Source: an uncultured Clostridia bacterium (GTDB lineage Bacteria; Bacillota; Clostridia; TANB77; CAG-508). Taken from it: 64,000 nt of DNA. The DNA is taken from assembly GCA_944389475.1 (NCBI GenBank), contig CALXMM010000001.1, positions 8,721-72,720 of the forward strand. Direction: 5' to 3'. Shown piece after piece: positions 18 through 29,474 of the stretch. Below the pieces are notes generated by a model. That model had not been told where the DNA came from. It saw only the letters and a program-made list of their open reading frames with translations, and made no database searches. Position 1 is the stretch's first letter, and every line of letters starts with the position of its first letter. A program made the position numbers and the translations under genes.

Positions 18-1022
18 ATGAATGAATTAATTAAGAATATTGCAACTTTAAAAGATGGATTATTTGCAGTAAAACAAGGAACTGAAACTTTATCTAATGG
101 TGTATCTACTTTGAAAAATGGAACAAATCAAGTACTAAATGGATCACAATCCTTAGAGCAAGGGCTTCAAACTTTGAGTAGTAGTTCTGGAAATGTAAAA
201 GAAGCTTTAAATCAATTAGATGAGGGAAGTAAATCAGCTGTTGATGGAAGTAAGAGACTTTTAGATGGTGTAAAAACGTTTAAGACCGAAATTAATAATG
301 GATTAGAAAAATCAAAAGTTGAATTATCAAAATTAAATGGTTTAAATGATTTTGTTTCTGAACCAGTTGTTATTAATGAAGAGCCTTATGGAGAGGTTGA
401 TTCATATGGTATTGCATTTACTCCATTGTTTTTATCTATAGGATTGTGGGTTGGAGCATTAATGTGTTATGTTGTTTTATATTATGATCAAAAACATAGA
501 TTTGGAAAATTTGATTATACTTATAAAAATAAATTAGCTCAAAACTTATTATATATTGCAATTGGCATTGTAGAAGGTATTGTCACTGGATTGTTATTAA
601 AATTGGGATTAGAATTTAATGTTGCTAATATGGGAATATATATAGCAGAATGTGCAATTGTTGGAGCTATATTTATGACTATTATACAATTTTTAATTAG
701 AAATTTTGGAGATATTGGTAAATTTTTAGCTTTAATTATATTAGTATTACAATTGGCTGCATCTGGTGGTACTTTCCCAGTTGAAACTATTGATAAAGGG
801 TTTAGATTTTTAAATCCATTACTACCTATGACATATAGTATTAAAATATTTAAAGAGTGTCTTGTTCAAACAAGTAATAACTTTATAGGAAAAAATACAT
901 TAATACTTGTATTAATCGGTTTAGCACTAGGAACAATTACTTTAATAGTTGAAATAGTAAAACATAAGGGAAATTCTAAAAAAGAAATTGAAAACAATAA
1001 TGAAAAAGTAACAGGAGCCTAA
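18..1022 (+). CDS. YhgE/Pip family membrane protein, C-terminal part (probably 5'-truncated by the window edge)
   Basis: Helical L-x-x-G-x-x-x-L repeats, then YGIAFTPLFLSIGLWVG and LQLAASGGTFP motifs with several TM helices. Confidence 0.85.
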   Translation: MNELIKNIATLKDGLFAVKQGTETLSNGVSTLKNGTNQVLNGSQSLEQGLQTLSSSSGNVKEALNQLDEGSKSAVDGSKRLLDGVKTFKTEINNGLEKSKVELSKLNGLNDFVSEPVVINEEPYGEVDSYGIAFTPLFLSIGLWVGALMCYVVLYYDQKHRFGKFDYTYKNKLAQNLLYIAIGIVEGIVTGLLLKLGLEFNVANMGIYIAECAIVGAIFMTIIQFLIRNFGDIGKFLALIILVLQLAASGGTFPVETIDKGFRFLNPLLPMTYSIKIFKECLVQTSNNFIGKNTLILVLIGLALGTITLIVEIVKHKGNSKKEIENNNEKVTGA

Positions 1023-1058
1023 GTAATTATCCCCCAGCTAAGCTGGGGGATAATTACT
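1022..1058 (+). terminator. Long perfect inverted repeat, probable terminator
   Basis: AGTAATTATCCCCCAGCT-A-AGCTGGGGGATAATTACT directly after the stop codon. Confidence 0.8.
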
Positions 1059-1269
1059 GTATAATAACGAAAATAGAAAAACTATAATATAGTTTTTTCA
1101 AATTTTGTTGGTTTCAAAGACAAAAAAATGATTGTGTGATATAATTCAATAGAAGACAATTTATCTAAACAATTAAAATTCATATTTTTACAACAAGACG
1201 ACAATTAAATAGATGGTAAAAAAATCAATCTAATAGAAAAATAGATTGTTAAATTATAAGGAGATTATT

Positions 1270-2367
1270 ATGGCAAATATAATTGATTATGTTGAATGGA
1301 GAGGAGATTTAAACTTAAATAAAACGGAGTTTAATGAAATAGATAGTTTAATATTAAATAGATTTTCGTATTTTCCGTTAGATAATCTAATAAACAAAAA
1401 TGAAATGGTATCAATAAAAGAATTAAGTGAAAGATTTAAAAAAGCAGATAAAAAGCAAATGAGAATTCTTTGGAAGGATGATGCAGATTTATTTCCAATA
1501 ATGGGCAATAGTAAAAGGTTTGGTGAAATGTTAGCTTTAGAATACATAAATAAAATAGATCCAGAACAAGAAAAACAATTTTCTGCTATTACAGTAATTT
1601 TACCTGATGATACACTTTATATTTCATATAGAGGAACTGACAATACATTAATTGGTTGGAAAGAAGATTTCAATATAAGCTTTAAAAGCCACATTGCATC
1701 ACAAATTTCTGCAAAAAAGTATTTGGAAAATATTGCAAAAAAATATCCATATAAAAAAATAAGAATAGGAGGCCATTCAAAAGGAGGAAATTTAGCAGTT
1801 TATGCTTCTGTTTTTGTTGATTCTGAAATACAAAAAAGAATTATTAATGTTTATAATAATGATGGTCCAGGTTTTCATGAAGATATAATAAATACTGAAG
1901 AATATAAGAGAGTAATTAATAAAGTAACAACATATATTCCACAAGATTCAATATTTGGAATGTTATTAAATCATGAGGAAAAATATACGATAGTTCAAAG
2001 TAATGAAAAAGGGTTAATGGAACATGATGCATATTCTTGGCAAGTATTAGGAAAAAAATTTGTTGTATTAAAGGAAGTTACAAATGAAAGTAAATTTATA
2101 GATAAGACAATTAAGAATTGGTTGAAAGATTTAGATATGGATACAAGGCAACAGGTGATAGACATTGTTTTTGAAATTCTTAATTCTACAAATTCAAAGA
2201 CAATACAAGATTTAAAATTTTCATTAGTAAAAAATGCAAGAATAATTTTATCTTCATATAAGCAAATAACCCCTGAGAATAAAAAAATGATAGAAGCTAC
2301 AGTAACTGCACTTCTTGGAATAGTTAAAGAAAATGTTAAAGCAGAATATAAAAAAATTAAATTTTAA
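1270..2367 (+). CDS. DUF2974 / Mbeg1-like alpha/beta hydrolase (lipase-like)
   Basis: MANIIDYVEWRGD N-terminus, YRGTD and GHSKGG nucleophile elbow; AAGGAG RBS before ATG 1270. Confidence 0.85.
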   Translation: MANIIDYVEWRGDLNLNKTEFNEIDSLILNRFSYFPLDNLINKNEMVSIKELSERFKKADKKQMRILWKDDADLFPIMGNSKRFGEMLALEYINKIDPEQEKQFSAITVILPDDTLYISYRGTDNTLIGWKEDFNISFKSHIASQISAKKYLENIAKKYPYKKIRIGGHSKGGNLAVYASVFVDSEIQKRIINVYNNDGPGFHEDIINTEEYKRVINKVTTYIPQDSIFGMLLNHEEKYTIVQSNEKGLMEHDAYSWQVLGKKFVVLKEVTNESKFIDKTIKNWLKDLDMDTRQQVIDIVFEILNSTNSKTIQDLKFSLVKNARIILSSYKQITPENKKMIEATVTALLGIVKENVKAEYKKIKF

Positions 2368-2451
2368 GTAAATAACAAATTACAAGTTGTAAAGAAAATC
2401 AAATTAATATAAATTTAAATAAATTAAAATTAAAAAAGAAGGAAATTTTAT

Positions 2452-2883
2452 TTGAATAATAGCTTGGATTTAAATTTTAATGAGATAGTCAATATGATAG
2501 AAACAAGAAGAAATAATACTTACAAAAAAGTTAATGAAGAATTAATTTCTTTATACTGGGACTTTGGAAAATATATCAGTGAAAAAGTTAATGATAATAA
2601 TTGGGGAGATAAAATTGTAGATAAATTAGCAGAATTTATGAAAAGAGAATATCCAACAATGAAGGGATTTAATCGTGCAGGAATTTATAGAATGAAACAA
2701 TTTTATGAAACTTATAAAGATAATGAAATTGTCGCTCCACTGGTGAGACAAATTAGTTGGACTAATAGTGTTTTAATATTAGGTGCTACAAAAACAATGG
2801 AAGAAAAAGAATTTTATATAAAAATGTGCATAAAAAATAATTATTCAAAAAGAGAATTTGATAGACAAAGTTCAAAAAGTTAA
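2452..2883 (+). pseudogene. Truncated DUF1016/YhcG family gene (N-terminal domain only, PD-(D/E)XK domain missing)
   Basis: LYWDFGKYI, WGDKIV, MKQFY and QISWT motifs; ORF stops at 143 aa just after running into a palindromic repeat remnant at 2866. Confidence 0.75.
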
Positions 2884-2921
2884 CGTAAAATTTGAACTTT
2901 AAGGTCCGTCCCTAAAGTTCA
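2866..2921. repeat. REP-like palindrome, 1.5 copies
   Basis: Half copy CAAAGTTCAAAAAGT (2866-2880) plus full copy TGAACTTT-AAGGTCCGTCCCT-AAAGTTCA (2893-2921), matching copies at 29395-29474. Confidence 0.8.
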
Positions 2922-3019
2922 CTATTGACAAAAAGGAGAATTAATAGTAAAATGTTAGCGAACGCTAACAATGATAAAAATAAGTAAAAAAATATATAGA
3001 CTTTGAGAAGGAGGAAAAT

Positions 3020-3739
3020 ATGTTAGAATTAAAAAATATTTGTTTTACAAGGGATAATAAAAAAATACTAGATAACATTAACTTAAAAATAGATAATAAT
3101 AAATTTATAGCAATAACAGGACCAAACGGTTCTGGTAAATCAACACTTGTAAAAATGATAATGGGAATAGAAAAACCTGATTCAGGAGAAATTTTCTTTG
3201 ATGGAAAAGATATTACTAATTTAGAAATAAATGAAAGAGCAAATTTAGGAATAAGCTTTGCTTTCCAACAACCAGTTAGGTTTAAAGGAATAACCGTGTA
3301 TGATTTGCTAAAAATTTCAGCTGGAAAACGTATTACTAAAAAAGAAGCTTGCGATGCTTTAGCACAAGTTGGTCTTTGTGCTAAAGAATATGTAGATAGA
3401 GAAGTAAGTGCATCTTTATCTGGAGGAGAATTGAAAAGAATAGAGATTGCAAGCGTAGTATTAAGAAAAACAAAATTAACTATTTTTGATGAGCCAGAAG
3501 CAGGAATAGATTTATGGAGCTTTAACAATTTAATAGAAGTATTCGAAAATCTATTAAAAACAGTTAAAGGAACTACAATAATAATCTCTCACCAAGAAAG
3601 AATATTAAGAATTGCAGATGAAATTATTTTAATGAAGAGAGGAAAAATTGACCAAATTGGAAGCAGTGAAGAGATTCTAGAAAAAACAATAAAACAAAAT
3701 ATAAAATGCTGTAAAAAATTGAAAGAAGGTGTAGAATAA
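3020..3739 (+). CDS. sufC: SufC-like Fe-S cluster assembly ABC ATPase
   Basis: GPNGSGKS, FAFQQPVRFKG, LSGGELKRIE, DEPEAGID; adjacent to a sufB/D-type gene. Confidence 0.85.
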   Translation: MLELKNICFTRDNKKILDNINLKIDNNKFIAITGPNGSGKSTLVKMIMGIEKPDSGEIFFDGKDITNLEINERANLGISFAFQQPVRFKGITVYDLLKISAGKRITKKEACDALAQVGLCAKEYVDREVSASLSGGELKRIEIASVVLRKTKLTIFDEPEAGIDLWSFNNLIEVFENLLKTVKGTTIIISHQERILRIADEIILMKRGKIDQIGSSEEILEKTIKQNIKCCKKLKEGVE

Positions 3740-4687
3740 ATGGCAGATACTAAATTACATGATGAATTGTTAAATAATGTGGATGAAAGCGTATTAGGCG
3801 AGATTACAAAATTAGATGAGCTAAAGACAGGAGCTTTTAATATAAGAAAAAATGGTAAAGGAATAGAAAGAGCAATAACAGAAAATGTTAATATAGTAAC
3901 CAAAACAGACAAACCAGGAATAGATATATATGTTAAGGAAAATACAAAGTTTGATATTGTTCATATTCCAGTAATAATTACAGAAAGTGGATTGAAGGAT
4001 GTTGTATATAATGATTTCTATATAGGAAAAAATGCAAAAGTATATATTGTTGCAGGTTGTGGAATTCACAATGACCACCATAAAGATTCACAACATGATG
4101 GAATTCATAGATTTTTCCTAGAAGAAGGAGCAAATGTAACTTATGTAGAGAAACATTATGGTGAAGGAGAAGGAACAGGAAAGAGAATTCTAAATCCGGT
4201 AACAGAAGTATATTTAAAAAAAGGTAGCCATATGGAAATGGAAAGTGTTCAAATAAAAGGTGTTGACTCTACAATAAGAGAAACCAAGGGTGTTTTAGAG
4301 GAAGATGCGAATTTTGTAGTTACTGAAAAAATAATGACACATGGGGAGCAATTTGCAAAAACTATATTTGATGTAGAATTAAATGGAAGTAATTCAAGTG
4401 CACATGTAACCTCAAGGTCTGTTGCACAAGGACATTCAAAACAATTTTTTATATCTAAAATATATGGAAATGCTAAGTGCTTTTCACATAGTGAATGTGA
4501 TGCTATTATTCAGGATAATGCGATAGTAACAGCAACTCCAGAAGTAACAGCAAATCATGTTGATGCAAACCTTATACATGAAGCAGCAATAGGAAAAATA
4601 GCAGGTGAACAAATTACAAAATTAATGACATTAGGTCTTACAGAAGAACAAGCAGAGCAAGAAATTATTAATGGATTTTTGAGGTAA
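3740..4687 (+). CDS. sufB: SufB/SufD family Fe-S scaffold protein
   Basis: VAGCGIH, HSECDAII and HEAAIGKIAGEQ motifs; starts directly after sufC. Confidence 0.85.
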   Translation: MADTKLHDELLNNVDESVLGEITKLDELKTGAFNIRKNGKGIERAITENVNIVTKTDKPGIDIYVKENTKFDIVHIPVIITESGLKDVVYNDFYIGKNAKVYIVAGCGIHNDHHKDSQHDGIHRFFLEEGANVTYVEKHYGEGEGTGKRILNPVTEVYLKKGSHMEMESVQIKGVDSTIRETKGVLEEDANFVVTEKIMTHGEQFAKTIFDVELNGSNSSAHVTSRSVAQGHSKQFFISKIYGNAKCFSHSECDAIIQDNAIVTATPEVTANHVDANLIHEAAIGKIAGEQITKLMTLGLTEEQAEQEIINGFLR

Positions 4688-4692
4688 TTATT

Positions 4693-4884
4693 ATGAGTTA
4701 TTTAATAAAAGATACTAGCAAAGAGGAAAGAAAGAAAATTGCTAAAGAAGCATTGGCAATTTCTGTGGCAAGTGATAAAATGCCATCTAAGAAAGTTATT
4801 GAATTAACAAAAGAATATATAAATGGTAAAATCGAATTAGATGAAATAAAAAGAAGAATAATAGAACATTATAGAAAGAGTTGA
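4693..4884 (+). CDS. Small helical protein, VbhA-like antitoxin candidate
   Basis: 63 aa with EYINGKIELDEI C-terminus; 3 nt upstream of a Fic gene. Confidence 0.6.
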   Translation: MSYLIKDTSKEERKKIAKEALAISVASDKMPSKKVIELTKEYINGKIELDEIKRRIIEHYRKS

Positions 4885-4887
4885 ATT

Positions 4888-5577
4888 ATGGATAGTATTT
4901 ATGAATTACCAAACGGAACATTAAAAAATCTATTAGGTATAACAGATTCTGAGGAATTAAAACAAGCAGAAGCAGATATGAGTTTTACAAATTTAATGTA
5001 TCTTCAAGAAGATTTGGCAAAAGAATGTGATGCAGAATTGCTAAAAAAAATAAATCAATGTCTTTTTGGTGATATTTACGAATGGGCAGGAGAATATAGA
5101 AAATATTCTGTTCGTAAAGAGGAAGATGTATTAAATGGAGATAGTGTTAGATATACTTTGCCAGAATCTATAGAGGATGAATTATATATTGTAACAGATG
5201 ATATGAATAATTATAATTGGAAAAATAAGAATATTGATGAAATTTCAGAAAAATTTGCTTATTACTTAGCAAAAATATGGAAAATACATCCTTTTAGAGA
5301 AGGTAATACAAGAACTGTTTTGGGATTTGCAGAAATATTTGCAAAAGAGCATGGATTTGAAATGGACTTGAGTAAAATGATAGATGATTTGGAAAGAATA
5401 GAAGATCCTGAAACAGGAGAAATTAAAAGATATGGACTACGAGATAAATTTGTTTTAGCAAGTTTGGATAATGAAGATGGTCCAGAGCCAGAACATTTAG
5501 AAAGAATAGTAAGAAAATCAATTGTAAGTGGAATAGAAAAAAAGATAGATGAATTAGAGGATTTATTGGATAGGTAA
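4888..5577 (+). CDS. Fic family protein
   Basis: LKNLLGITD N-terminus, LFGDIYEWAGEYR, active-site loop HPFREGNTRT. Confidence 0.9.
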   Translation: MDSIYELPNGTLKNLLGITDSEELKQAEADMSFTNLMYLQEDLAKECDAELLKKINQCLFGDIYEWAGEYRKYSVRKEEDVLNGDSVRYTLPESIEDELYIVTDDMNNYNWKNKNIDEISEKFAYYLAKIWKIHPFREGNTRTVLGFAEIFAKEHGFEMDLSKMIDDLERIEDPETGEIKRYGLRDKFVLASLDNEDGPEPEHLERIVRKSIVSGIEKKIDELEDLLDR

Positions 5578-5623
5578 AAGAAAAAATTGACACAAAATGT
5601 CGAAAAAAGTAAACAATATAAAT

Positions 5624-5652
5624 TTGACTAAAATGGAAATTTATGGTAGAAT
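5624..5652 (+). promoter_or_regulatory. Sigma-A promoter of cassette 1
   Basis: TTGACT-17 bp-TAGAAT with extended TG; perfect Spo0A-box TGTCGAA at 5598-5604 upstream. Confidence 0.7.
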
Positions 5653-5709
5653 AATTATGCATAAACCAAATGGTTTATTTAGTACAAAAGACTACAGAAA
5701 GGGGCTATT

Positions 5710-5937
5710 ATGCCTAGCACAGTGATTTATTCAGGTACTTTTCGTGACAACGAGGGTAATTACTCAGCAAAGGTTGCTGAGAATGGAGAGATTCATGGAC
5801 CCGATGGAACGAAGATGGGGCGAGTTAACAATGCCGGCATAGTTTTTGATGTCGAAGGAAAAAAGGTTGCTACCATCAATCGTTACGGTCGTGTCTTCAA
5901 CCTTCGTGGCCAGCAGATTGGTACTTTCCGCAATTAG
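5710..5937 (+). CDS. Small beta-hairpin-repeat protein (beta-flower-like), cassette 1
   Basis: 75 aa with repeated G-x-[IV]-x-[DG]-x-x-G units; AAAGGGG RBS; own promoter and terminator; GC-rich. Confidence 0.7.
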   Translation: MPSTVIYSGTFRDNEGNYSAKVAENGEIHGPDGTKMGRVNNAGIVFDVEGKKVATINRYGRVFNLRGQQIGTFRN

Positions 5938-5945
5938 TCAACGAT

Positions 5946-5999
5946 AAGAATCAAATTTGATTCTTAAAGGAACATGTTTTTTAAACATGTTCCTTTTTT
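5946..5999 (+). terminator. 20-bp palindrome plus intrinsic terminator
   Basis: AAGAATCAAATTTGATTCTT, then AAAGGAACATGTTT-TTT-AAACATGTTCCTTT and a T tail. Confidence 0.8.
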
Positions 6000-6055
6000 C
6001 CTGTTTTGGTGTTAAATTTAACCTTACACATACCTTTTTTAGGTAATATAATATC

Positions 6056-6084
6056 TTGACTAAATTGTTAATTTATGGTATTAT
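6056..6084 (+). promoter_or_regulatory. Sigma-A promoter of cassette 2
   Basis: TTGACT-17 bp-TATTAT with extended TG; homologous to 5624-5652. Confidence 0.7.
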
Positions 6085-6143
6085 AAATAGTGCATAAACC
6101 AAAAGGTTTATCATGTACAACAGACTATGGAAAGGATATTATT

Positions 6144-6386
6144 ATGCCTACGCGTACTGTGTTTGTTAAGGGTAAGGGCTACGATAGGGATGGCCAGCCT
6201 TGGTTTATTGCCGAGGGCCCCCATGGTGATGTGCTGGATTTCGATACCAAGCGACTTATCATGACTATCAATAACAAGTACGAGATCTTTGGCCTTGATG
6301 GTGCAAAGAGGTACGTTGTCCAGGATGGTGGTGCTATTATTGATCTCCGTAATGGTGGTCGGTGTGGCACCTTCCATAGGTGGTAG
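6144..6386 (+). CDS. Small beta-hairpin-repeat protein, cassette 2 (distant paralog of 5710-5937)
   Basis: 80 aa from ATG 6144 (GAAAGGA RBS); starts MP-[ST] and ends GTF-x like cassette 1; GC-rich. Confidence 0.7.
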   Translation: MPTRTVFVKGKGYDRDGQPWFIAEGPHGDVLDFDTKRLIMTINNKYEIFGLDGAKRYVVQDGGAIIDLRNGGRCGTFHRW

Positions 6387-6393
6387 TCAGAAC

Positions 6394-6449
6394 AAGAATC
6401 AGAATTGATTCTTTAAAGGAGTGTGTTATTTTTATAGCACACTCCATTT
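6394..6449 (+). terminator. Conserved hairpin plus terminator of cassette 2
   Basis: AAGAATCA-GAAT-TGATTCTT, then GGAGTGTGTTAT-TTTT-ATAGCACACTCC. Confidence 0.75.
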
Positions 6450-6596
6450 CTATTATATATTAAAATCTATTTAGAAAAGTTTAAATTTACTTTTCATCAT
6501 ATTATAGTAATATTTAAATTGGTATGATATAATTCTAATTAGTTTGAAAAAGTATATATTATATATTTTTAATCAGCTGGATAGGGTGAAAGATTT

Positions 6597-7550
6597 ATGA
6601 TAAATAAAAATATGGAAGAGAATTATATAAAGCAATATGAAGCAGACAAAGAAATACTTAATAATCAACTTAAAGACTATTATAAAAGAAATAATGAAGC
6701 AATTATAAAGTTTAACGATGCTAAGCAAAATTATGGAACTGAATCCAAAGAATTTAAGCAAGCGTCTGTAGAATTAAGAAAATGGAGTTTTTATATTAGC
6801 CAATCCAATCTGGCTTTAAGATTTATTAGACCAAATAATATAGATGATATAGAGTATAGAAATTACCAATATCAAGAATTTACTACAAGATTGCAATCAG
6901 TTACTTGTATGCCTTTGGATATAAGATATTATGGAGCTACAATTTATAATGCAGAGCAAATAATTAAAAGTAAAAGTATAAAACCTATGCCAGATAGTGA
7001 GAACGAGTATACACAATTTACTGATGTAAGTGGACAAATTCCTGCCTCAACTATACAAAATTTATATAAAATTATAGATTATCATTCAGACATAAAGGCA
7101 TATGAACGCTCATTGCCATGTGGATGTATTTTTGCAATATTTCCAAAAGGAATACAAGATTATCAATCACAGGATTATATAAATGCGGTTGATTTTGGGC
7201 AAAATCCTGAGCGATTATTTGGAATAATTACTACTCCAGAAAACAATGAGTTGGTAAAAAAATGGATGGAAGAAGAAAATTTAAATCCAGAACAGGTATA
7301 TACATTTGAGGAGTATATAAGTCTTGTTCAAGAAAGGTCAACAATATTAGGTGGAGAATTTCCAAAAATGGAAAATATAACAAGTAAAAGAGACAGAAAT
7401 TTTGGAAAAGATGAGATAAAAAAATTAAGTGAAGGAAGAAATATAGAAACTTTAGTAAGAACACAGCAAGACTTAAAACAGGCAATAGACAAAGGAAAAA
7501 ATAATTCAAGAGAGGAAAACGATGAATATGGAGAAACAAGAGATTTATAA
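6597..7550 (+). CDS. Hypothetical protein, possible degenerate ADP-ribosyltransferase-like domain
   Basis: 317-aa ORF with host codon usage; RYYGATIYNAEQIIKS resembles the YHGT...I strand-helix start of ART folds; charged C-terminal tail. Confidence 0.55.
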   Translation: MINKNMEENYIKQYEADKEILNNQLKDYYKRNNEAIIKFNDAKQNYGTESKEFKQASVELRKWSFYISQSNLALRFIRPNNIDDIEYRNYQYQEFTTRLQSVTCMPLDIRYYGATIYNAEQIIKSKSIKPMPDSENEYTQFTDVSGQIPASTIQNLYKIIDYHSDIKAYERSLPCGCIFAIFPKGIQDYQSQDYINAVDFGQNPERLFGIITTPENNELVKKWMEEENLNPEQVYTFEEYISLVQERSTILGGEFPKMENITSKRDRNFGKDEIKKLSEGRNIETLVRTQQDLKQAIDKGKNNSREENDEYGETRDL

Positions 7551-7833
7551 TGCTTCATTAGAAGTATTAAGAGTAATAGAATATTTTGAGCCAGATATCT
7601 CAATGAAAATTCCACAAGATTTTAAATTAAAATTAAAGGAATTAGCAAGTAAAGCTACTAATTATGTTGCAATAGATACAGAAAAAAGTTTAAGTGAACA
7701 AAATATATCTGAGATTGCTAAAGATTTAATTGCATTAATATACTATAGTTATATCGCAACAGACACTGAAAAAATAGCATTAAAAGAATGTTGGAATAAA
7801 AACAGATTAAGGAGCTTTAAATGGAAAAATTAG
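7522..7833 (+). CDS. Hypothetical helical protein
   Basis: 103 aa; AGAGG RBS; overlaps both neighbours. Confidence 0.65.
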   Translation: MNMEKQEIYNASLEVLRVIEYFEPDISMKIPQDFKLKLKELASKATNYVAIDTEKSLSEQNISEIAKDLIALIYYSYIATDTEKIALKECWNKNRLRSFKWKN

Positions 7834-10800
7834 ATTTACAAACATTTAGAAATCTAAAACAAGAAGTTATAAACTATGTAAACAGAATAGAAGAGATAGA
7901 TGAAAGCCTTGAAATTATTTCGGATGAGGAAAATGATAAATTATTGGCAAAATATAAAGAAATCATAGACTTTTTATCAAAACATGATTTAAGTGATATA
8001 GATTTTAAAGAATGGCAAGGAATGTTTCTTCAGGTAAGTGAAGAAGTACCAATGGATTTCTCAAAAACAAAAGCAAAATTGGACTTTTCTATAATTGATT
8101 ATGCTAGATTTGATGTTTTTCCAAATTTTAAGAATTGTGAAATAAGAAATTTTAATTTTAACCTTTATGAATATAGACCGGAAATGTTTGATGAAAAATT
8201 TATAAAAGAGAATCAAAAATATTTCTTAAGTGAAGAAGCACCTGAAAATCTAAAAAAAGACTATTATACACATTCTTTATCATTAAAAGTTTATAGTGAT
8301 AATTTAGAATATTTTAAAGGTAAAGCAGTTAGTAATAATTTTAATATATTCAATGAACAGACAAATCTATTTTATTTATATGGTGATGATATATATCAAT
8401 TATTTTCTAATTATAAACCCTTAATGGATAAAATAATAGATGATGAAAACACCGATTGGGGTATTTTGCGTAATCCAATGGATACAAATATAGAAACAGA
8501 AGAAGATAAAAAGAATCGCATGAAGAATTTGCTGGTATCATATTTTAAAGATCCAAATCAAATTGATGATTTCCAAATGCTTAAAATGATTTTAGATTTT
8601 GTACCACTTAATGAGTTACCTTTTTTTGATAAAGATAGAGAGATAATTGAAAAATATGGAATAGATAAATTATTAGAATATGGAATTAAAGACTTGAAAG
8701 AATTAGCTATTGTAACAAATGATTTATACGAAATTAGAGACTTAATGAAAACAATTCCACTTGATTTAATTAAAATTGGAATGGGAGCAAATTCTTTTAT
8801 AGAAATTCAGTTTATTCAAAAATATGGAATAGATAATATTATTAGATTGGATGAAGAAACAAATGGAATGTTCTCTCATAAAATATTTAATGACTCCGAT
8901 ATCTATCTATTGGCTTTTGCTTATGTAGATAGGAATTCACCTCAACAAAAACTAGATAGAGAACTAACTTATGATGAGTTTAAGAATAGAATGTACGAAC
9001 TTTTACTACATTCAAGAGATGAAGATGAAATTTTTGCAAATAGGGATTTTCCGGATTATGATTTTATCACTGGAAAATTTAGAAAAGAGCATCAGGATAT
9101 ATTTTTAGATGGTGATATTGACCCAGATATAAAGAGGAAGTTTTACAATGGAAGAATGACTGCAAACGATATTAGAGAACATCCAGAATTAATTAACTTA
9201 TTACAAGGAAAAGACCTTGGTGGAGTATTTCATGCTTTAATTTTTGTAGATTCTGGGCCAGAAATAGTGGATGAAAATGGAAATGTTAATCGAAATCCTA
9301 AAATGGTAAATTTAGCTAATTATTTTTCAAATAAACTTGGACAAGAAGAATTCTTGAAGATTTGTGCAACATATGGAGTTTGTTTCGACTCAGTTAGTTG
9401 GAGCACAAAGGATTTAGATTTTGAAAATATAAGAGAGTCAATAGAAGATAAAATATATAAAGATTTAAAAAGAAGAGCAATAACATATTTTGATGACTTA
9501 CCTTCTAGTTTTAAGGAAAAACATCCAGAACTATTTCTTCCTAAAAATGTTGATGAAGAATTTAGAAATAAATTTTATAGTGGTAGATTATCTTTTGAAG
9601 ATATAAGGGAAAATCCACAATTAAAAGAAGTACTAGTATCAAAAGATTTGAGTGTAGGATTTAGAGCAAGTTTCTCATATCAAATTAGTTTGTGGAACGA
9701 GTTATCTAACTCAGAAATATTGGATTTACTTGAAAAATATGGAAGATATCTAAGGATTATTGATTTAAAAATTTTACGAGATAGTAAAAATGTGCAAGAT
9801 AGAGATTTGGAAATAGAAACAAGTATAGAAAAATTAATATTGGATAAAAAGGTTCCATTTTTAGAAAATATTCCCAAATTTTTTAAGGATAAACATCCAG
9901 AGTTTGTTTTGGCAGATGATACACCCGAAGTATTAAAACAAGCATTTTATAGTGAATATGGTAATCAAGTAAAAAAAGAATCCATAGTAAATTTTATAGC
10001 TGAACATCCGGAAATGGAAGAAGTATTTTATGCTAGGCGTGGAGAATGTATTTTTCCGTTAATAAAAGAACATCCTGAATGGAGAGAATTTTTAAAGGGT
10101 AAAGATTTAAGATTGTCTTTTAGCAAAGATTATGATGAGCTATTTAAAAGACTTGATAATACTTCAATATTAAAGCTTGGAACTAGGGACCAAGAAACAA
10201 TTAGAAAAATGGTTGACAACCATAGAGAAAGTACTTTAGAAAATTGGTATAATGCAACAGGAAGAAAATTTGTTCCAAACTATATAGTTATGTTAAATTT
10301 TCCAGAAGATGAGATTGATAATTTCCTTGCAAATAGTAAGAAATGGAATCGATTAATGAAAATAGAGGGATATAATTCTAATGAAAATATGAAAACATCT
10401 ATTTTAAAAGCAGCATATAGTTTTGGAGTTTTTGAGGAGAATGACAAAGGTCTTCACGAAACAATTAAATTATTTACAGGGTTGCCAAAATATTTAACAC
10501 CTGAAGAATTTTCTAATATAAATGATTTTATACAATTTACATATGATTCAGATAAAAAAGAGATGTTTCAAAGAGCATATCAGTTAAGGGAAGATGGAAA
10601 ATATAGTTTAAGATTAAATGAACAAAAAGAAAAAAGAACAGCTAGAGAAATTAGAGATATTATGGAACAATCAGATTTTCCTAGAATTATAACTCCAGAA
10701 AAAGCTCATAAAATATTTGATTCTTTTTCGATGGACTATAATCCAAATTTTGTTAAATTCTTTAATGAAAATGCTAATGAAATAATAACAAATTCGGAAT

Positions 10801-12194
10801 GTACTAATGAAATTGCAAAAATACAAAGACAATTTAAAGAGATAGAGAGAATAAATGCTGGTAGAAGATTAACTATGGATTTGGCGAGGGATTACATTAG
10901 AACTATAGCTTACAGTAATATCGATATAGGAAATGAGCAAGTTGCAGAACAAGCTAAAATAGTTGGATATTCACAAGATGATTTCGAAGTAATACAAAGA
11001 TTATATAATGAAGGAGAAACAAGGGATTTTTCTAGTATTCCTAGAGTAACGGGAAAAGTAAAAGGATATACATACGAAATGCTTAGGTGTGATGACCCAT
11101 TAGCATTAACAATTGGGGACCTTACTGATTGTTGTCAAAAAATACATGGAGCAGGAAAAACTAGTATGGAACACAGTATGGTATCACCTGATGGAAGAGT
11201 TTTTTGTGTTAAAGATGAAGAAGGAATAGTTGTTGCACAAAGTTGGTTTTGGAGAAATAAATATACGGGATGTTTTGATAATATAGAAATTCCAGATAAA
11301 ATATTCGAAAAATACGAAAAAGACCATCCTAACGAGGGTAGGAAAGGATTAACAAAAGATGTGTTGGAAGTATATAAAAAGGCTGTAAGTGACTTAATGC
11401 AAGAAGATAAAAGAGTTTATGATGAATTGTTAAAAGAAGGGACTATAACTCAAGAACAATATGATGCCTTATTATTAGGAAAGGTTACAATCGGTTTAGG
11501 GTTTAACGATATTGCTCAAGCAATAGAGACAGATACAACTTTGCATATAGATGAAGAACCTGCAGATGTTATTTCTACACAAAGAGTGCCTTCTCCATAT
11601 ACTGATGCTTATGAACAATATGTGGTAGCAGAAAGGGATGGGATAGTAAAATCTGATTTAGATAATTTATATGTTCATCAAGATGATGTACCAGTATATG
11701 ATGGTAAAAATATGAATGAAAAGGTTTTGCTAACAATAAGAAGAATGGAACAATTTGGTAGAAATAATACACAATACTTATATCAAAAAAGGGAAAATGA
11801 AAACTTAGGAGATTCACAGATAATTATTAATGAAAAAGATGAAAACTCAAGAGATTCACAGATAATTATTAACGAATTGGCAGAAGAATATGGACTTAAT
11901 CCTAGTAGCACGAAGGTAATGGCTACAGCTAGGATGGCTCTTATATACAGTCAGGATAAAGATGAAATAAAAATTGGAGATGTATTATCAGCACCATTAA
12001 AAAAAGAATTAACACAAGAACAAAAGCAAAAGGCAAATAATCATATAAGAAATCAAGTAAAAAGAGCTTTACAACAAGTAGGAGTAGAAAGTAATAAAAT
12101 AGATATGTCATCATTGGATGAAGATAAACAGAAAATGTTACAATCTGTTATAGATGAAATAAAAAAAGAAAATAACAAAAGAGGTGAAAGATAA
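7821..12194 (+). CDS. Large hypothetical protein with internal repeats and a C-terminal G-x-x-T-x-CCQ / AQSW-x-W / DNIE domain
   Basis: 1457-aa uninterrupted ORF with AAGGAG RBS; about four F-x-x-x-HPE-x-FL...FY...KDL repeats. Confidence 0.75.
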   Translation: MEKLDLQTFRNLKQEVINYVNRIEEIDESLEIISDEENDKLLAKYKEIIDFLSKHDLSDIDFKEWQGMFLQVSEEVPMDFSKTKAKLDFSIIDYARFDVFPNFKNCEIRNFNFNLYEYRPEMFDEKFIKENQKYFLSEEAPENLKKDYYTHSLSLKVYSDNLEYFKGKAVSNNFNIFNEQTNLFYLYGDDIYQLFSNYKPLMDKIIDDENTDWGILRNPMDTNIETEEDKKNRMKNLLVSYFKDPNQIDDFQMLKMILDFVPLNELPFFDKDREIIEKYGIDKLLEYGIKDLKELAIVTNDLYEIRDLMKTIPLDLIKIGMGANSFIEIQFIQKYGIDNIIRLDEETNGMFSHKIFNDSDIYLLAFAYVDRNSPQQKLDRELTYDEFKNRMYELLLHSRDEDEIFANRDFPDYDFITGKFRKEHQDIFLDGDIDPDIKRKFYNGRMTANDIREHPELINLLQGKDLGGVFHALIFVDSGPEIVDENGNVNRNPKMVNLANYFSNKLGQEEFLKICATYGVCFDSVSWSTKDLDFENIRESIEDKIYKDLKRRAITYFDDLPSSFKEKHPELFLPKNVDEEFRNKFYSGRLSFEDIRENPQLKEVLVSKDLSVGFRASFSYQISLWNELSNSEILDLLEKYGRYLRIIDLKILRDSKNVQDRDLEIETSIEKLILDKKVPFLENIPKFFKDKHPEFVLADDTPEVLKQAFYSEYGNQVKKESIVNFIAEHPEMEEVFYARRGECIFPLIKEHPEWREFLKGKDLRLSFSKDYDELFKRLDNTSILKLGTRDQETIRKMVDNHRESTLENWYNATGRKFVPNYIVMLNFPEDEIDNFLANSKKWNRLMKIEGYNSNENMKTSILKAAYSFGVFEENDKGLHETIKLFTGLPKYLTPEEFSNINDFIQFTYDSDKKEMFQRAYQLREDGKYSLRLNEQKEKRTAREIRDIMEQSDFPRIITPEKAHKIFDSFSMDYNPNFVKFFNENANEIITNSECTNEIAKIQRQFKEIERINAGRRLTMDLARDYIRTIAYSNIDIGNEQVAEQAKIVGYSQDDFEVIQRLYNEGETRDFSSIPRVTGKVKGYTYEMLRCDDPLALTIGDLTDCCQKIHGAGKTSMEHSMVSPDGRVFCVKDEEGIVVAQSWFWRNKYTGCFDNIEIPDKIFEKYEKDHPNEGRKGLTKDVLEVYKKAVSDLMQEDKRVYDELLKEGTITQEQYDALLLGKVTIGLGFNDIAQAIETDTTLHIDEEPADVISTQRVPSPYTDAYEQYVVAERDGIVKSDLDNLYVHQDDVPVYDGKNMNEKVLLTIRRMEQFGRNNTQYLYQKRENENLGDSQIIINEKDENSRDSQIIINELAEEYGLNPSSTKVMATARMALIYSQDKDEIKIGDVLSAPLKKELTQEQKQKANNHIRNQVKRALQQVGVESNKIDMSSLDEDKQKMLQSVIDEIKKENNKRGER
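11797..11876 (+). repeat. In-frame 42-bp tandem duplication
   Basis: ENLGDSQIIINE / ENSRDSQIIINE encoded by near-identical DNA. Confidence 0.85.
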
Positions 12195-12195
12195 T

Positions 12196-13491
12196 ATGGA
12201 TAATATAAGAGAAATTTTAGGAAATTCAATAATGGCATATACTAATATGGATGTTAATGTGAATGGAAAAGAGATAGTCAAAAATATATTTGATATATTA
12301 AAAGAAGATTGGAAAAGTATACTTAAGGCTAATAAAATAGATGTAAAAAACGATAATGGTTTCAATATAGATGAAGAGTTAATAAATAAAATAAAAAACG
12401 AGATTGATGGCTTAGAAGATTCATATAGAAAAGTTATTTCTTTGCACAAGAATGAAAACAATTATTTAGAAGGCAAGCAGACAGATAATTTGGGAACAAT
12501 TTGCTTAGCCTATGATGGAAATACATATTGCTTATTAGAATCAATATTAAAATCCATTCTAACTCACAATTCTTTAATTATAACTAGTGAATCAAATTAT
12601 ATGAAAGCTACTAATGAATTAATAGTAATATTGGTTCAAAGAATATTGGAAGCATATAAAATAGATAAAAATTTAATACAGATATTATATACTAGTAGAT
12701 TAGAGGAATTGCTTTCTAATATCACTAGCATAAATAGAGTAATCGTTATAGGAAACAAAGACTTTCAAGAAAAAATAAAAAGAATATCTAAAATTGAAGT
12801 TTATACAAAAGGATATGATAATTTCGATATTTATATAGAAGATTTAACCCATCTTTCTTTTATAAAAAAGATTATAAATACAAAGAAAAATATGGACATA
12901 TATGTTAAAAGTGACTTAGAAGTTCCTTTTGATGATTATATTGAAGTAGCAGATATAGATGAAGCAATAGCACAAATAAATTTTAATACATCAGGATATA
13001 GTAGTAGTATTTTTACTAACAATAAACAAAATGCTTCACAATTTTTAAGAGAGGTAAAAACAGAAAATGTATCTGTTAATAGTAGTCCATTAATAAGAGA
13101 TATTGCAAATATAGATATAAAATTATTTTTAAGAAAAAAGAATATGTTTTATCCTAATCCTCTAAAAGAAGGAACCGAGGAAAGCAAATTTGAGTTCCCA
13201 ACAGCAAGAGCAATATTGGAGAAAAATAAAAAAAATGAAACTGAAGCTATGATTAATAAAATGAAAAAGGAAAATATGGAGCTAAAAGAAAACAACGAGA
13301 AACTTAAAAATCAAACTATGATGGAACTACATGAAAAAGAAAAAGAGGTAGATGAGTTAAAAAGACAATTAAGTGAATCTCAAAATATGGCTAATAAATA
13401 TATGGGAATTTTTAGAAAATCATTTTTTAGTAGATTTTTCGGTAAGATAAAAAAAGAAGATATAGAAAAAGATATAAAATCGATTTCTTAG
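12196..13491 (+). CDS. Degenerate ProA/aldehyde-dehydrogenase-fold protein with C-terminal coiled coil
   Basis: ILKANKID, LGTICLAYDG and IDEAIAQINFNTSGYSSSIFT...FLREV...VSVNSS match gamma-glutamyl phosphate reductase segments; no CNA catalytic motif; GAGGTG RBS. Confidence 0.65.
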   Translation: MDNIREILGNSIMAYTNMDVNVNGKEIVKNIFDILKEDWKSILKANKIDVKNDNGFNIDEELINKIKNEIDGLEDSYRKVISLHKNENNYLEGKQTDNLGTICLAYDGNTYCLLESILKSILTHNSLIITSESNYMKATNELIVILVQRILEAYKIDKNLIQILYTSRLEELLSNITSINRVIVIGNKDFQEKIKRISKIEVYTKGYDNFDIYIEDLTHLSFIKKIINTKKNMDIYVKSDLEVPFDDYIEVADIDEAIAQINFNTSGYSSSIFTNNKQNASQFLREVKTENVSVNSSPLIRDIANIDIKLFLRKKNMFYPNPLKEGTEESKFEFPTARAILEKNKKNETEAMINKMKKENMELKENNEKLKNQTMMELHEKEKEVDELKRQLSESQNMANKYMGIFRKSFFSRFFGKIKKEDIEKDIKSIS

Positions 13492-13603
13492 ATGGGACAA
13501 ATGTTATAGAACAAGTGATTTTAATAAAATGAAAATAATAAGTTAAGGCAGAATAGAATCAAATTGAAGGTTACAGAAAAATCAAATATAACATATAATA
13601 AGT

Positions 13604-13639
13604 AAAAAACTATATACTACGTAGTGTATATAGTTTTTT
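13604..13639 (+). terminator. Probable terminator
   Basis: AAAAAACTATATAC...GTATATAGTTTTTT inverted repeat. Confidence 0.55.
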
Positions 13640-13643
13640 CGAC

Positions 13644-14624
13644 ATGGGGGGAATGAAATTGGTGAAAAAGATAATTGGGAATACACCAATGATAAAAATA
13701 AATTATGAATTTAAAGGGAAAAAACAATATATTTATACAAAATTAGAATATTATAACTTAACTGGAAGTATAAAAGATAGAGTAGCATATTACATGATAA
13801 AAAATGCAATAGAAACAGGTGAATTAAAGGAAAATATGCCAATTATAGAGGCGACAAGTGGAAATACAGGTATTGCATTAGCTGCAATTGGTAGGTTATA
13901 TAATCATGAAGTATATATTTTTATGCCAGATTGGGTAAGCGAAGAAAGAATAAAATTAATGGAAAACTATGGTGCCAAGGTATTTCTATATTCAAAAGAA
14001 GACGGAGGATTTAAAAGATGTATTAATGAAGCAAAAAAACTGGCAAAAGAAAAGAATGGATTTTTAACAAATCAATTTTCTAATAAAAATAACTTTTTGG
14101 CACATTATGAAACGACAGGTGTTGAAATAATAAAACAAATTCCAGAGAAAGTTTATGGTTTTGTATCTGGAGTAGGTACAGGTGGAACTTTAATGGGAAT
14201 TGGTAAAAGGTTAAAAGAGAAATTTAATGAATTAAAAATAGTAGCAATAGAGCCGGATAATATGCCAATGCTTTCAAAAGGCATTATCTTAGGAGGACAT
14301 AAAATAGAAGGAATAGGAGATGAATTTATTCCAGAATTAATAGATGAAAATGCCATAGATGATATTATATTAGTAAATGATGAAGATTCCATAAACATGG
14401 CAAGAAGGTTATCTAGAGAATTAGGATTAGGAATTGGAATTTCATCTGGGGCAAATTTTTTAGGAAGCATTTTATTAAGTGAAAAAATAAATAAACCAAT
14501 AGTAACAGTATTTGCAGATGATAACAAAAAATATTTGTCAACAGATTTATTTAAAGAAATAGATAATAACAAAAACTTTATTTCTAATCAAGTAAAACTT
14601 ATTAATTGGGAAGAAGTGGAATAA
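13644..14624 (+). CDS. cysK: PLP-dependent cysteine synthase family protein (exact start uncertain)
   Basis: IGNTP, NLTGSIKDR, EATSGNTG, GVGTGGT, HKIEGIG motifs. Confidence 0.85.
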   Translation: MGGMKLVKKIIGNTPMIKINYEFKGKKQYIYTKLEYYNLTGSIKDRVAYYMIKNAIETGELKENMPIIEATSGNTGIALAAIGRLYNHEVYIFMPDWVSEERIKLMENYGAKVFLYSKEDGGFKRCINEAKKLAKEKNGFLTNQFSNKNNFLAHYETTGVEIIKQIPEKVYGFVSGVGTGGTLMGIGKRLKEKFNELKIVAIEPDNMPMLSKGIILGGHKIEGIGDEFIPELIDENAIDDIILVNDEDSINMARRLSRELGLGIGISSGANFLGSILLSEKINKPIVTVFADDNKKYLSTDLFKEIDNNKNFISNQVKLINWEEVE

Positions 14625-14668
14625 AGCTTTAAAAAAATTAAATAATGACTAAAAAATGTAAAAAAATA

Positions 14669-14698
14669 TTGACTTTATAGCACAATTTGATGTATATT
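14669..14698 (+). promoter_or_regulatory. Putative sigma-A promoter for the non-coding RNA
   Basis: TTGACT-18 bp-TATATT with no substantial ORF before the 14860 terminator. Confidence 0.5.
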
Positions 14699-14769
14699 AT
14701 TTATACAAAAAGAATAAATAATTATTCTTAAATAGTATTATTATATGTGTAGCTACATATAATATAAAT

Positions 14770-14857
14770 GAATTATTTAAGGATAGAAAGGCAGCTATCA
14801 TGCCAGTGATGGTCTAAAAAAGATGTGGGATACGCCGCCCCACTAAATAATTCACCA
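14770..14857 (+). ncRNA. Putative tRNA-like cloverleaf RNA with a 3' ACCA
   Basis: Perfect 10-bp closing stem 14770-14779/14844-14853, internal hairpins (one with a GNRA loop), ACCA at 14854-14857, local GC island, flanked by promoter and terminator. Confidence 0.65.
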
Positions 14858-14859
14858 AG

Positions 14860-14887
14860 AAGGAGACAGTACAAACTGTCTCCTTTC
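14860..14887. terminator. Terminator between the convergent ncRNA and nuclease gene
   Basis: AAGGAGACAGT-ACAA-ACTGTCTCCTT. Confidence 0.8.
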
Positions 14888-14915
14888 ATAAATAAATAAA
14901 ACTTAATTTATATCC

Positions 14916-15332
14916 TTATTTATATTTTTTATAGATTCCTATATTAATATTATGCTTTAATTTGCTTTCAGTTATTGGAAAGATAGTTCTAAAAAGTAAT
15001 CCATTATCATTAGAAGTAATTTTTATTCCAATTAAAGAAATATCTGAAAGTTTTTTAATATATTGGATATTTCCATTTTTTGAATTTATACCAATGTAAT
15101 CAGGTTCTTTAATAATTAAGGGAATATTTGTAATTGCTTCATTATATGCATATACAGAAGAATATTCCGTTTTATGTTTTTCACAATGCTCTTCTATTCT
15201 AGGTCCCCATAAATATATATTTTGTGGCTTTAAATCTAAATTTAATATTTTTATTGCTTGTGTAGAAAGTTCACCTATTTTAACATTTCCACTTTTACTT
15301 TTTTTAAATTTATTTAAGTTTAAATAATCCAT
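14916..15332 (-). CDS. PBECR-like (barnase/EndoU/colicin E5/D/RelE fold) putative ribonuclease
   Basis: 138 aa; IEEHCEKH...IPLIIKEPDYIG...IQYIKK...LFRTIFPI pattern; GAGG RBS. Confidence 0.7.
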   Translation of the reverse strand: MDYLNLNKFKKSKSGNVKIGELSTQAIKILNLDLKPQNIYLWGPRIEEHCEKHKTEYSSVYAYNEAITNIPLIIKEPDYIGINSKNGNIQYIKKLSDISLIGIKITSNDNGLLFRTIFPITESKLKHNINIGIYKKYK

Positions 15333-29345: not shown

Positions 29346-29474
29346 AGGGATTTAGGGTCAGTCCTAGAATCCCTATTTTTTTATATAAATTTTTTGAACT
29401 TTAAGGTCAGTCCATAAAGTTCATTTCTTTATGTAAATCTTTTGAACTTTAAGGTCCGTCCCCAAAGTTCAAAA
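29346..29474. repeat. Cluster of three REP-like palindromes with a GGTC(A/C)GTCC core
   Basis: AGGGATTT-AGGGTCAGTCCTA-GAATCCCT; TGAACTTT-AAGGTCAGTCCAT-AAAGTTCA; TTTTGAACTTT-AAGGTCCGTCCCC-AAAGTTCAAAA. Confidence 0.8.

Follow-up and report, generated by a model that had tools for sequence, protein, structure and literature searches.

A conserved non-coding frame around three diverging small genes in an uncultured Clostridia bacterium: candidate moron-like modules

It is rare in bacteria for a non-coding frame to be better conserved than the genes that it encloses, and where this is seen, it usually points to a regulatory RNA. Two short genes that lie head to tail in an uncultured Clostridia bacterium (GenBank assembly GCA_944389475.1, contig CALXMM010000001.1) are enclosed by such a frame, and the question that they raise is what holds the surrounding DNA constant while the encoded proteins change. 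The stretch that was analyzed, referred to here as the window, comprises 64,000 nucleotides (nt) of that contig (positions 8,721 to 72,720 of the forward strand); its features lie on the plus strand unless stated otherwise. The genome has 1.6 Mb, 27.5% GC, 32 contigs and a completeness of 98%, and 892 of its long open reading frames (ORFs) were scored for codon use. Public sequencing runs that contain the stretch come from seven studies and are mostly chicken-gut, faeces and air metagenomes. In the reading that we favor, to which we give a probability of roughly 0.55, the genome holds three copies of a moron-like accessory module in which the frame would serve expression or mRNA control while the protein diversifies.

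The units, their frame and their insertion sites

Unit 1 (5624 to 6003) and unit 2 (6056 to 6449) could be aligned from the -35 box to the terminator. Each is made up, in this order, of TTGACT, a 17-nt spacer, an extended -10 element, a hairpin, the motif ACAA-N-AGACTA, a Shine-Dalgarno (SD) sequence, ATGCCTA, the ORF, TAGTCA, a second hairpin and a terminator. A preliminary description, made from the letters of the stretch, had proposed two units spaced 432 bp apart with a common non-coding frame; TTGACT at 5624 and at 6056 bears out the spacing, and the alignment bears out the frame and the positions assigned to it. Both promoters matched the sigma-70 consensus at 10 of 12 positions in a consensus scan, with the 17-nt spacer and a TG ahead of the -10 box. 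Rfam gave nothing above threshold on either cassette locus (that of units 1 and 2 or that of unit 3, described below).

In unit 1, the promoter found by the consensus scan (TTGACT, 17-nt spacer and the extended -10 element TG-n-TAGAAT; 5624 to 5652) aligned with those of units 2 and 3. The 5'-terminal hairpin (5661 to 5678), with a 7-bp stem (ATAAACC/GGTTTAT), a 4-nt loop and a predicted energy of -5.7 kcal/mol, begins approximately 1 to 3 nt past the predicted transcription start, which was placed from the position of the -10 box. The single-stranded leader delimited by the three-unit alignment (5684 to 5704) carries ACAA-N-AGACTA and then the SD sequence GAAAGGGG. ORF1 (5710 to 5937) encodes 75 amino acids (aa) that form four beta-hairpin repeats according to the translation and an AlphaFold2 model, and it has 46% GC, with a GC fraction at third codon positions (GC3) of 0.42. 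In the minimum free energy (MFE) fold, the 3' partner of the leader is formed by CTTTCC in the last codons and by the stop region TAGTCA (5924 to 5940). The 3' hairpin (5946 to 5965; AAGAATCA, a 4-nt loop and TGATTCTT; 8 bp, predicted at -7.0 kcal/mol) follows, and then an intrinsic terminator with a 14-bp stem and a T-tract (5966 to 6003), as identified by a terminator scan and folding.

Unit 2 repeats this arrangement. The consensus scan placed its promoter (TTGACT, 17-nt spacer, TG-n-TATTAT) at 6056 to 6084; alignment and folding placed the 5'-terminal hairpin at 6094 to 6111; and the three-unit alignment placed the leader, ACAA-C-AGACTA followed by the SD sequence GGAAAGGA, at 6117 to 6136. 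ORF2 (6144 to 6386) encodes 80 aa, again with four beta-hairpin repeats by translation and AlphaFold2, and has 49% GC and a GC3 of 0.52. Comparison with contigs of runs X19 and X10 revealed a hypervariable block within it (6173 to 6264, approximately codons 10 to 41). By folding, the 3' partner of the leader consists of TTCCATAG in the last codons and the stop region TAGTCA (6372 to 6389). It is followed by the 3' hairpin (6394 to 6413; AAGAATCA, loop GAAT and TGATTCTT; alignment and fold) and by an intrinsic terminator with a 12-bp stem (6418 to 6449; terminator scan and fold). An 88-aa open frame runs antisense to ORF2 (6111 to 6377, minus strand), with no promoter-like site listed directly upstream; it is most likely a by-product of GC-rich, stop-poor DNA.

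The genome-wide search with segments of the frame that the preliminary description had proposed recovered one further, unlinked copy. With up to three substitutions allowed, a scan of the 1.6-Mb genome still returned exactly three occurrences of the leader pattern, which is not a chance repeat. Unit 3 lies on contig C2 (102,900 to 103,320; locus L048, 1300 to 1700) between mutS and a ThiF-like gene. It has the same type of promoter, the hairpin, ACAA-T-AGACTA, an SD sequence, the 3' hairpin and a terminator as in units 1 and 2, and its ORF3 encodes 88 aa. The stop codon of ORF3 is shifted, such that the ORF terminates within the 3' hairpin. The frames of all three units can be aligned; the arms of the 5' hairpin are invariant in all three and the 3' hairpin is kept in all three.

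That the non-coding DNA would be better conserved than the coding DNA had also been claimed from the letters, and the comparison of units 1 and 2 confirmed it. Identity was 79% (26/33) in the promoter, 80% (40/50) in the 5' untranslated region (UTR) and 71% (44/62) in the 3' UTR, compared to 48 to 49% in DNA outside the units, 41% in coding DNA, 34% at third codon positions and 28% (21/74) in protein. Among the three copies, third codon positions were 33 to 34% identical and proteins 23 to 28%. The contrary outcome, a simple old duplication with only two copies, invariant between strains, and with ORFs diverged as much as their flanks, is not what was found: there is a third copy, the payloads vary, and frame identity far exceeds ORF identity. 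Moreover, the changes within the frame preserve structure. At three stem positions of the terminator, unit 1 departs from units 2 and 3 through compensatory double changes; in unit 3, two G-U-compatible changes leave the pairs of the 3' hairpin intact; and an allelic change in two runs (6098 A>G) converts an A-U pair of the unit 2 5' hairpin to G-U. Because silent sites are saturated, the frames are 71 to 80% alike and the changes are structure preserving, the frame appears to be held by selection and not by recent copying, and purifying selection on its signals is the best reading of the alignment. The structure-preserving changes, small in number, also favor RNA hairpins over DNA operators.

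Units 1 and 2 lie between a VbhA-like antitoxin and Fic toxin pair (4693 to 5577), directly 5' of unit 1, and a conserved 317-aa gene. They stand at the end of a stretch of approximately 15 kb (C1, the contig of the window, ~300 to 15,300, i.e., window position 1 to ~6600) in place of which the closest congener has approximately 1.1 kb. This stretch starts near a tyrosine recombinase gene (C1, 859 to 1311), synteny resumes at the 317-aa gene, and its cargo includes an ABC-2 transporter, an Mbeg1-like gene, a DUF1016 fragment, a SufC/SufBD-like pair, VbhA/Fic and units 1 and 2. At the site of unit 3, the mutS-ThiF spacer measures 46 to 186 nt in all 11 congeners, where the site is empty, versus 623 nt with unit 3; in the closest congener, approximately 13 nt replace approximately 510 nt that include the unit. 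A profile hidden Markov model (HMM) of the protein family found no member in 400 other genomes of the same bacterial family, 22 of the genus among them, and the DNA of the two units had no real match in 60 relatives. The strict leader pattern matched once in those 400 genomes, inside a membrane-protein ORF, and not at all in the viral_contigs collection; three matches in genome_contigs and six in metagenome_contigs all lacked a following ribosome-binding site and ATG and were judged to be chance. A looser form of the pattern had no match in 380 other genomes of the family or in viral_contigs. As judged from these comparisons, the units look like lineage-specific insertions, that is, a recent and patchy gain.

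A phage moron is a single gene with its own promoter and terminator, inserted between neighboring genes and deviant in composition, as described in PMC4378225. The cassettes resemble morons in that each has one ORF between a sigma-70 promoter (by consensus scan only) and an intrinsic terminator, in that they stand between genes that are neighbors in close relatives lacking them (as at the unit 3 site), and in that their composition is unlike that of their neighbors. They differ from morons in that no prophage is evident around them, in that only the ORF and not the whole unit deviates in composition, and in that conservation of the frame among diverged copies is not part of the moron concept. 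The neighbors of the units had no informative PHROG matches, and the search for phage structural genes did not go beyond this.

Message folding and codon composition

In the module reading, promoter, gene and terminator would arrive as one unit. The frame would comprise an extended -10 promoter close to the consensus, a 5'-terminal stem-loop, a strong SD sequence, a 3' stem-loop and an intrinsic terminator, and a leader segment, GACUA with the SD flank, could base-pair with the end of the ORF, stop codon included, in its own mRNA. The role of such a frame would probably be mRNA stabilization or translation coupling, if the predicted transcription start and RNA pairings are right, around a protein that has diverged to silent-site saturation and is apparently still reshuffled between strains. 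Stem-loops at the 5' terminus stabilize mRNA in Gram-positive bacteria, as in the ermC and aprE leaders, and the cassettes resemble leaders of this type in having a stable hairpin no more than a few nucleotides from the predicted 5' end and then a strong SD sequence. If this reading is true, the frame would constitute a new cis-acting element of the mRNA, without an Rfam match, accessory mini-genes would be seen to import their own expression control on entering a genome, and the beta-flower fold, to which the encoded proteins may be distantly related, would have a first genetic context that hints at a role in an arms race.

The predicted MFE folds of all three transcripts join GACUA and the SD flank to the final codons and the region of the stop codon, and along each transcript the leader finds its best duplex site at the 3' end of the ORF. 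In units 1, 2 and 3, respectively, the ensemble probability of this end pairing was ~0.1, ~1.0 and ~0.8, and the fraction of shuffles that did as well was 0.24, 0.013 and 0.034. The high value of unit 2 concerns CUAUGGAA, which pairs with UUCCAUAG (6372 to 6379). Pairing of the leader with the 3' end is thus plausible as a prediction, strong in two of the three units and unproven, and it would explain the conservation of AGACTA and TAGTCA. The closest precedent is the hbs mRNA of Bacillus subtilis, for which an interaction of the 5' UTR with the 3' UTR, together with a strong SD sequence, was reported to tie the stability of the message to its translation (Braun, Durand and Condon, 2017, PMC5737220). 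As far as the features reported there extend, hbs and the cassettes have in common a short mRNA (~350 to 380 nt) for a small protein, a strong SD sequence, a structured leader and long-range pairing of leader and 3' end, predicted in the cassettes. They differ in that the pairing in hbs is reported as 14 bp long, between UTRs and proven by experiment; the helices of the cassettes have 5 to 9 bp, include the final codons of the ORF together with its stop codon, and are predictions, strong in two of three units. Homology with hbs is not implied.

The whole transcripts of units 1 to 3 folded better than shuffles (z scores of -4.3, -5.4 and -5.5). The coding sequences alone did not fold notably better than shuffles (z scores of -2.3, -0.15 and -1.9); therefore, the folding excess lies in the hairpins, and a specially folded coding body was rejected.

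The composition of the ORFs is far from that of their host. The GC fractions at first, second and third codon positions (GC1/GC2/GC3) are 0.39/0.30/0.14 for the ORFs of the genome, 0.54/0.41/0.42 for ORF1, 0.56/0.41/0.52 for ORF2 and 0.44/0.33/0.27 for ORF3, and only 0.3%, 0.07% and 1.2% of length-matched segments of long ORFs reach the GC3 of ORF1, ORF2 and ORF3, respectively. By a score of synonymous usage, only 1 of the 892 long ORFs ranked below ORF1, and none ranked below ORF2; this pair has the least host-like codons of the genome. The earlier hand count of 81 G+C in 170 nt at 5761 to 5930 was exact on recount, and the remark that no arginine codon is AGA held for both ORFs (0/6 in ORF1 and 0/7 in ORF2, against 80% genome-wide). 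The frames have 25 to 30% GC. Genes for EF-Tu and EF-G favor those two-fold codons that end in C, yet they retain AAA and GAA and have a GC3 of 0.15 to 0.16, so high expression does not explain the codon use of the ORFs, and translational selection was rejected as its cause. Contig C31 (19.3 kb, ~50% GC) carries genes for an ABC sugar transporter and for GH127, GH3, rhamnosidase and GH63-like enzymes and was probably mis-binned from another organism; as a source of the ORFs, this sugar-utilization cluster was rejected. Approximately 10 further genes of the genome have GC3-rich, AAG/GAG-rich codons (GC3 of 0.34 to 0.51), among them C5:36464-37207, C2:66239-66889, C4:79493-80440, C9:45443-45925 and C9:44777-45274, and those on C9 include an adjacent pair of similar-looking small proteins.

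A second tandem pair of self-contained units lies on contig C6 (23,900 to 25,200; locus L084, 698 to 2010, minus strand). Over 170 nt, its leaders agree at ~75% of positions, with one conserved core segment in which they are nearly identical, and its trailers are conserved and hold a 9-nt exact complement of the leader (TAGGCAATT and AATTGCCTA). The energy of the whole leader-trailer duplex was not beyond that of shuffles (fractions of 0.11 and 0.31). The encoded proteins (142 and 147 aa) are 39% identical, one copy has a GC3 of 0.62 and the second a GC3 of 0.33, and the 142-aa protein has no Pfam match. Homology of this pair to the cassette family was considered and rejected, with an hhalign probability of 0.4%. 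Since it is of like design, the fixed-frame pattern may be more general in this organism.

Several observations weigh against the module reading. No terminal repeat or target duplication was seen at the junctions of unit 3, and searches by tblastn against phages and plasmids, by blastn against phages, and with the family alignment and the leader pattern against viral contigs turned up no relative of the module in phages, plasmids or viruses. Regarding the predicted end pairing, that of unit 1 is weak, a cross-unit comparison of leaders and 3' ends showed no cognate specificity, and in the unit 2 helix a G-C pair is lost through an allelic change (6129 G>A), with no compensation visible in protein-level data. 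No RNA run was listed among the 24 runs with the stretch, and the promoter, transcription start and stability are predictions. A foreign origin of the ORFs, in particular, has to contend with three points: the island itself is AT rich, with Fic and the frames at 25 to 30% GC, such that the ORFs deviate even from their own carrier; GC3 is unequal across the three ORFs; and the unrelated C6 pair is GC enriched mainly at silent sites (GC1/GC2/GC3 of 0.44/0.34/0.62), which fits selection on silent sites better than import.

These last points lead to the most credible rival, which we consider possible but clearly less probable than the module reading. According to this explanation, the GC-rich, A-poor codons did not come from a GC-richer donor but are held by selection at the mRNA level, for example for resistance to AU-directed RNases or for a required fold, such that frame and recoded body together would make a hyper-stable or structure-controlled message. 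This explanation can stand alongside the module reading, from which it departs only in what it names as the cause of the composition. The 5'-terminal hairpin, the strong SD sequence, the end pairing and the double 3' hairpins would all fit protection of the mRNA, as would the folding of the whole transcripts, the GC richness of the ORFs within an AT-rich island, the C6 pair (with conserved leaders and trailers and, in one copy, high GC3 with GC1 and GC2 near those of the host) and the AAG/GAG-rich, GC3-rich usage common to several other genes. However, the coding parts alone lack the folding excess, ORF1 and ORF2 are raised in GC1 and GC2 as an ordinary gene of a genome with ~45 to 50% GC would be, ORF3 is only mildly enriched within the same frame, and a recent arrival would be expected to have unameliorated donor composition anyway. 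The GC-rich codons may thus be due to import, i.e., to a horizontal origin, or to RNA-level selection. Taken with the C6 pair and the other GC3-rich genes, the cassettes raise the question of why a few genes keep GC-rich codons in a genome of 27% GC. A broader and more speculative proposal, which we regard as doubtful, is that gut Clostridia carry portable "closed-loop" expression shells (promoter, 5' hairpin, leader pairing with its own 3' end, 3' hairpin and terminator) used by unrelated small-gene families such as the cassettes and the C6 pair. These shells would keep GC-rich, A-poor bodies by RNA-level selection while binder proteins evolve and recombine very fast under fixed expression.

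It is unlikely, in our estimation, that the palindromes are DNA operators for shared regulators instead of RNA hairpins, which would make the three units a small regulon with a frame that is kept constant because proteins bind to it. The 7-bp inverted repeat with its 4-bp spacer, at approximately +2 to +19 just past the -10 box, does occupy a classic repressor position, and its arms are invariant in all three units, without covariation. Still, the changes seen in the palindromes (the two in unit 3 and the allelic one) are G-U compatible on the sense strand only and would break DNA symmetry; the 5' and 3' palindromes differ in sequence, such that two regulators would be needed; and no regulator gene accompanies the units at either locus.

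The encoded proteins and their variation

According to the preliminary description, the two ORFs share only an N-terminal MP-[ST], a C-terminal GTF and a beta-hairpin periodicity. The strong divergence stands, but the resemblance extends beyond the end motifs: BLASTP aligned ORF1 with ORF2 at an E value of 2e-4 (26% over 78 columns), indicating that they are homologues, and the family HMM recovered all three copies with E values of 3e-35 to 4e-29. The proposed folding of both proteins gave AlphaFold2 models with predicted local distance difference test (pLDDT) scores of 88.5 for ORF1 and 90.4 for ORF2 and a common predicted secondary-structure pattern of eight strands in four hairpins. The translations contain [DNEQ]xxG motifs at the hairpin tips (DNEG, NNAG, DVEG, NRYG and NLRG in ORF1; DRDG and QDGG in ORF2). 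Neither signal peptide, lipoprotein motif nor C-terminal hydrophobic helix was found in the cassette proteins.

The only family signals were subthreshold matches to Bflower_2, Bflower and DUF3659 and a match to phrog_18536, which is uncharacterized (ORF1, E value of 8.8e-8). ORF1 scored 23.7 bits against Bflower_2 (cut-off of 38) and 22.1 bits against Bflower (cut-off of 25), ORF3 scored 17.6 bits against Bflower_2, and ORF2 had no match. An exhaustive protein search returned 118 matches, mostly giant repeat proteins; all 14 of those scanned against Pfam matched Bflower_2 at an E value of 0.01 or lower, 12 of them above the cut-off (the exceptions being P0058 and P0084). The nearest small relative is P0058 (79 aa, 38% identity). 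In P0058 and P0123 to P0126, a single N-terminal residue varies (R, C, L or S at position 6) and the rest is almost invariant.

Other searches with the small proteins returned leads or nothing. No match was found in NCBIfam or PADLOC, including its defense systems, in a PDB sequence search, or by Foldseek against the PDB at an E value of 0.001 or lower. The best VIA-align Z score was 6.0 (2jmb), and the top matches were small eight-strand barrels with Z scores of 4 to 6, a range that the tool calls a common arrangement; none of the solved structures stood out as a clear relative. The best BFVD match, at an E value of 4e-3, was to uncharacterized phage proteins, and scores in the ESM Atlas were below 0.9 and served as leads only. 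A word-based search with ORF1 had no match, ORF1 had one weak match in 300 genomes of the order, in a 257-aa frame, and P0058 had one weak match in 400 genomes of the class.

The beta-flower fold has been described from AlphaFold models as petals of beta-hairpins with 4-, 5- or 6-fold arrangement (8, 10 or 12 strands) and a semiconserved [DNEQ]xxG at the tips, and its function was given there as not known (Durairaj et al., 2023, PMC10584680). With the beta-flower families (PF21784 Bflower and PF21785 Bflower_2, clan CL0395), as characterized in that account, the cassette proteins share repeats of ~17 aa, beta-hairpins and the [DNEQ]xxG tips, and their models show four hairpins and eight strands. 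In contrast to beta-flowers, they score below the curated cut-offs; they lack the signal peptide, lipoprotein motif or C-terminal hydrophobic helix that many beta-flowers have; and at 75 to 88 aa they would be the shortest form of the fold. The best explanation that the models and profiles offer is that the cassette protein is a cytoplasmic, small all-beta domain of ~75 to 88 aa distantly related to the beta-flower repeat families. It may act as a binder or inhibitor, or, as the preliminary description had suggested, as a binding or immunity protein.

The payloads vary between strains, as the preliminary description had suspected. ORF2 occurs in at least three allele groups whose proteins are 71 to 79% identical (variants P0120 to P0122 and P0129 to P0135), and P0129 is a mosaic in which the N-terminal block of one group is joined to the C-terminal part of a second group. 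Contigs of runs X19 and X10 have a diverged 90-nt block of equal length at 6173 to 6264, with flanks that differ at approximately 4% of positions; outside the block, these contigs show three synonymous and four nonsynonymous codon changes, one of which alters all three bases. Between the window allele and P0122, 15 of the 30 residues of the block differ. A contig of run X14 contains both units; ORF1 has a single change there (5801 C>A), and the spacer between the units has been replaced. The loose ends of other contigs keep the leader hairpin and AGACTATAGAAAGG and then continue with different sequence, indicating that further family members exist in those samples. Parts of the stretch were uncovered in runs X19 and X20, from which no absence was inferred. 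All three ORFs and all 15 retrieved allelic or related protein variants are open. As far as sequence comparison goes, the variation of ORF2 supports diversification by recombination, selection or both.

The core of the earlier reading, a fixed frame around a diverging payload of non-host composition, was therefore right, but its suggestion of cassette capture was not sustained, the three payloads being one protein family with a common predicted fold. The machinery that it had asked to be sought did not turn up either. No match to PF00078 (reverse transcriptase) was found in the genome, which is 98% complete, whereas control genomes did match; searches of the genome's own DNA with frame segments and with the whole two-unit stretch revealed no further copy of ORF1 or ORF2 as a possible template; and none of the five tyrosine recombinases is adjacent to the units, the nearest lying ~13 kb upstream. 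Integron cassettes and diversity-generating retroelements resemble the units in having a repeated unit, conserved boundaries and variable content. Integron cassettes, which are promoterless ORFs with an attC site beside an integron integrase, differ in that each unit here has its own promoter, no adjacent integrase and homologous payloads (attC sites were not searched with a dedicated model), and diversity-generating retroelements, which need a reverse transcriptase and a near-identical template repeat, differ in that the genome yielded neither of the two. It is very improbable, then, that a dedicated diversification or capture system (integron-like, a diversity-generating retroelement or templated gene conversion) writes payloads into the frame. 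The sharp shift in divergence at the start and stop codons, the replacement of an equal-length block between strains and the mosaic allele would suit such a system. It is opposed by the missing reverse transcriptase and template, the separate promoters, the distance to any recombinase, the single family of payloads and the finding that the frame was not detected with another payload in 380 other genomes of the family or in the genome, viral and metagenome collections.

Least credible of all is an old tandem duplication with functionless coding parts decaying neutrally and a frame similarity that is residual or due to gene conversion, for although low protein identity (23 to 28%) and the want of a family match above a curated threshold would fit decay, all ORFs and variants are open, both models are confident with the same predicted secondary-structure pattern, the frames are 20 to 30% diverged with compensatory changes, unlike recent conversion, and the third copy is unlinked.

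Other features of the window and genome

Further downstream in the window, a gene for a PBECR3 (Barnase/EndoU/RelE-like) nuclease lies at 14916 to 15332 on the minus strand. The sole above-threshold Rfam match within the window is a skipping-rope RNA (RF02924) at 14772 to 14851 on the plus strand, with 68.6 bits versus a threshold of 36.7. A 1457-aa protein encoded at 7821 to 12194 (plus strand) had no match in Pfam, NCBIfam, PADLOC or PHROG and is partially conserved in the closest congener (72% DNA identity over ~2.1 kb). Finally, a 27-nt palindromic repeat (8-bp arms around GGGACGGACC) has 51 copies in the genome, mostly just 3' of genes, and is present in congeners too. Its copies in the window lie at 2896 to 2918, 29398 to 29420 and 29446 to 29468, and one copy elsewhere in the genome lies directly against the left border of the insertion site of unit 3.

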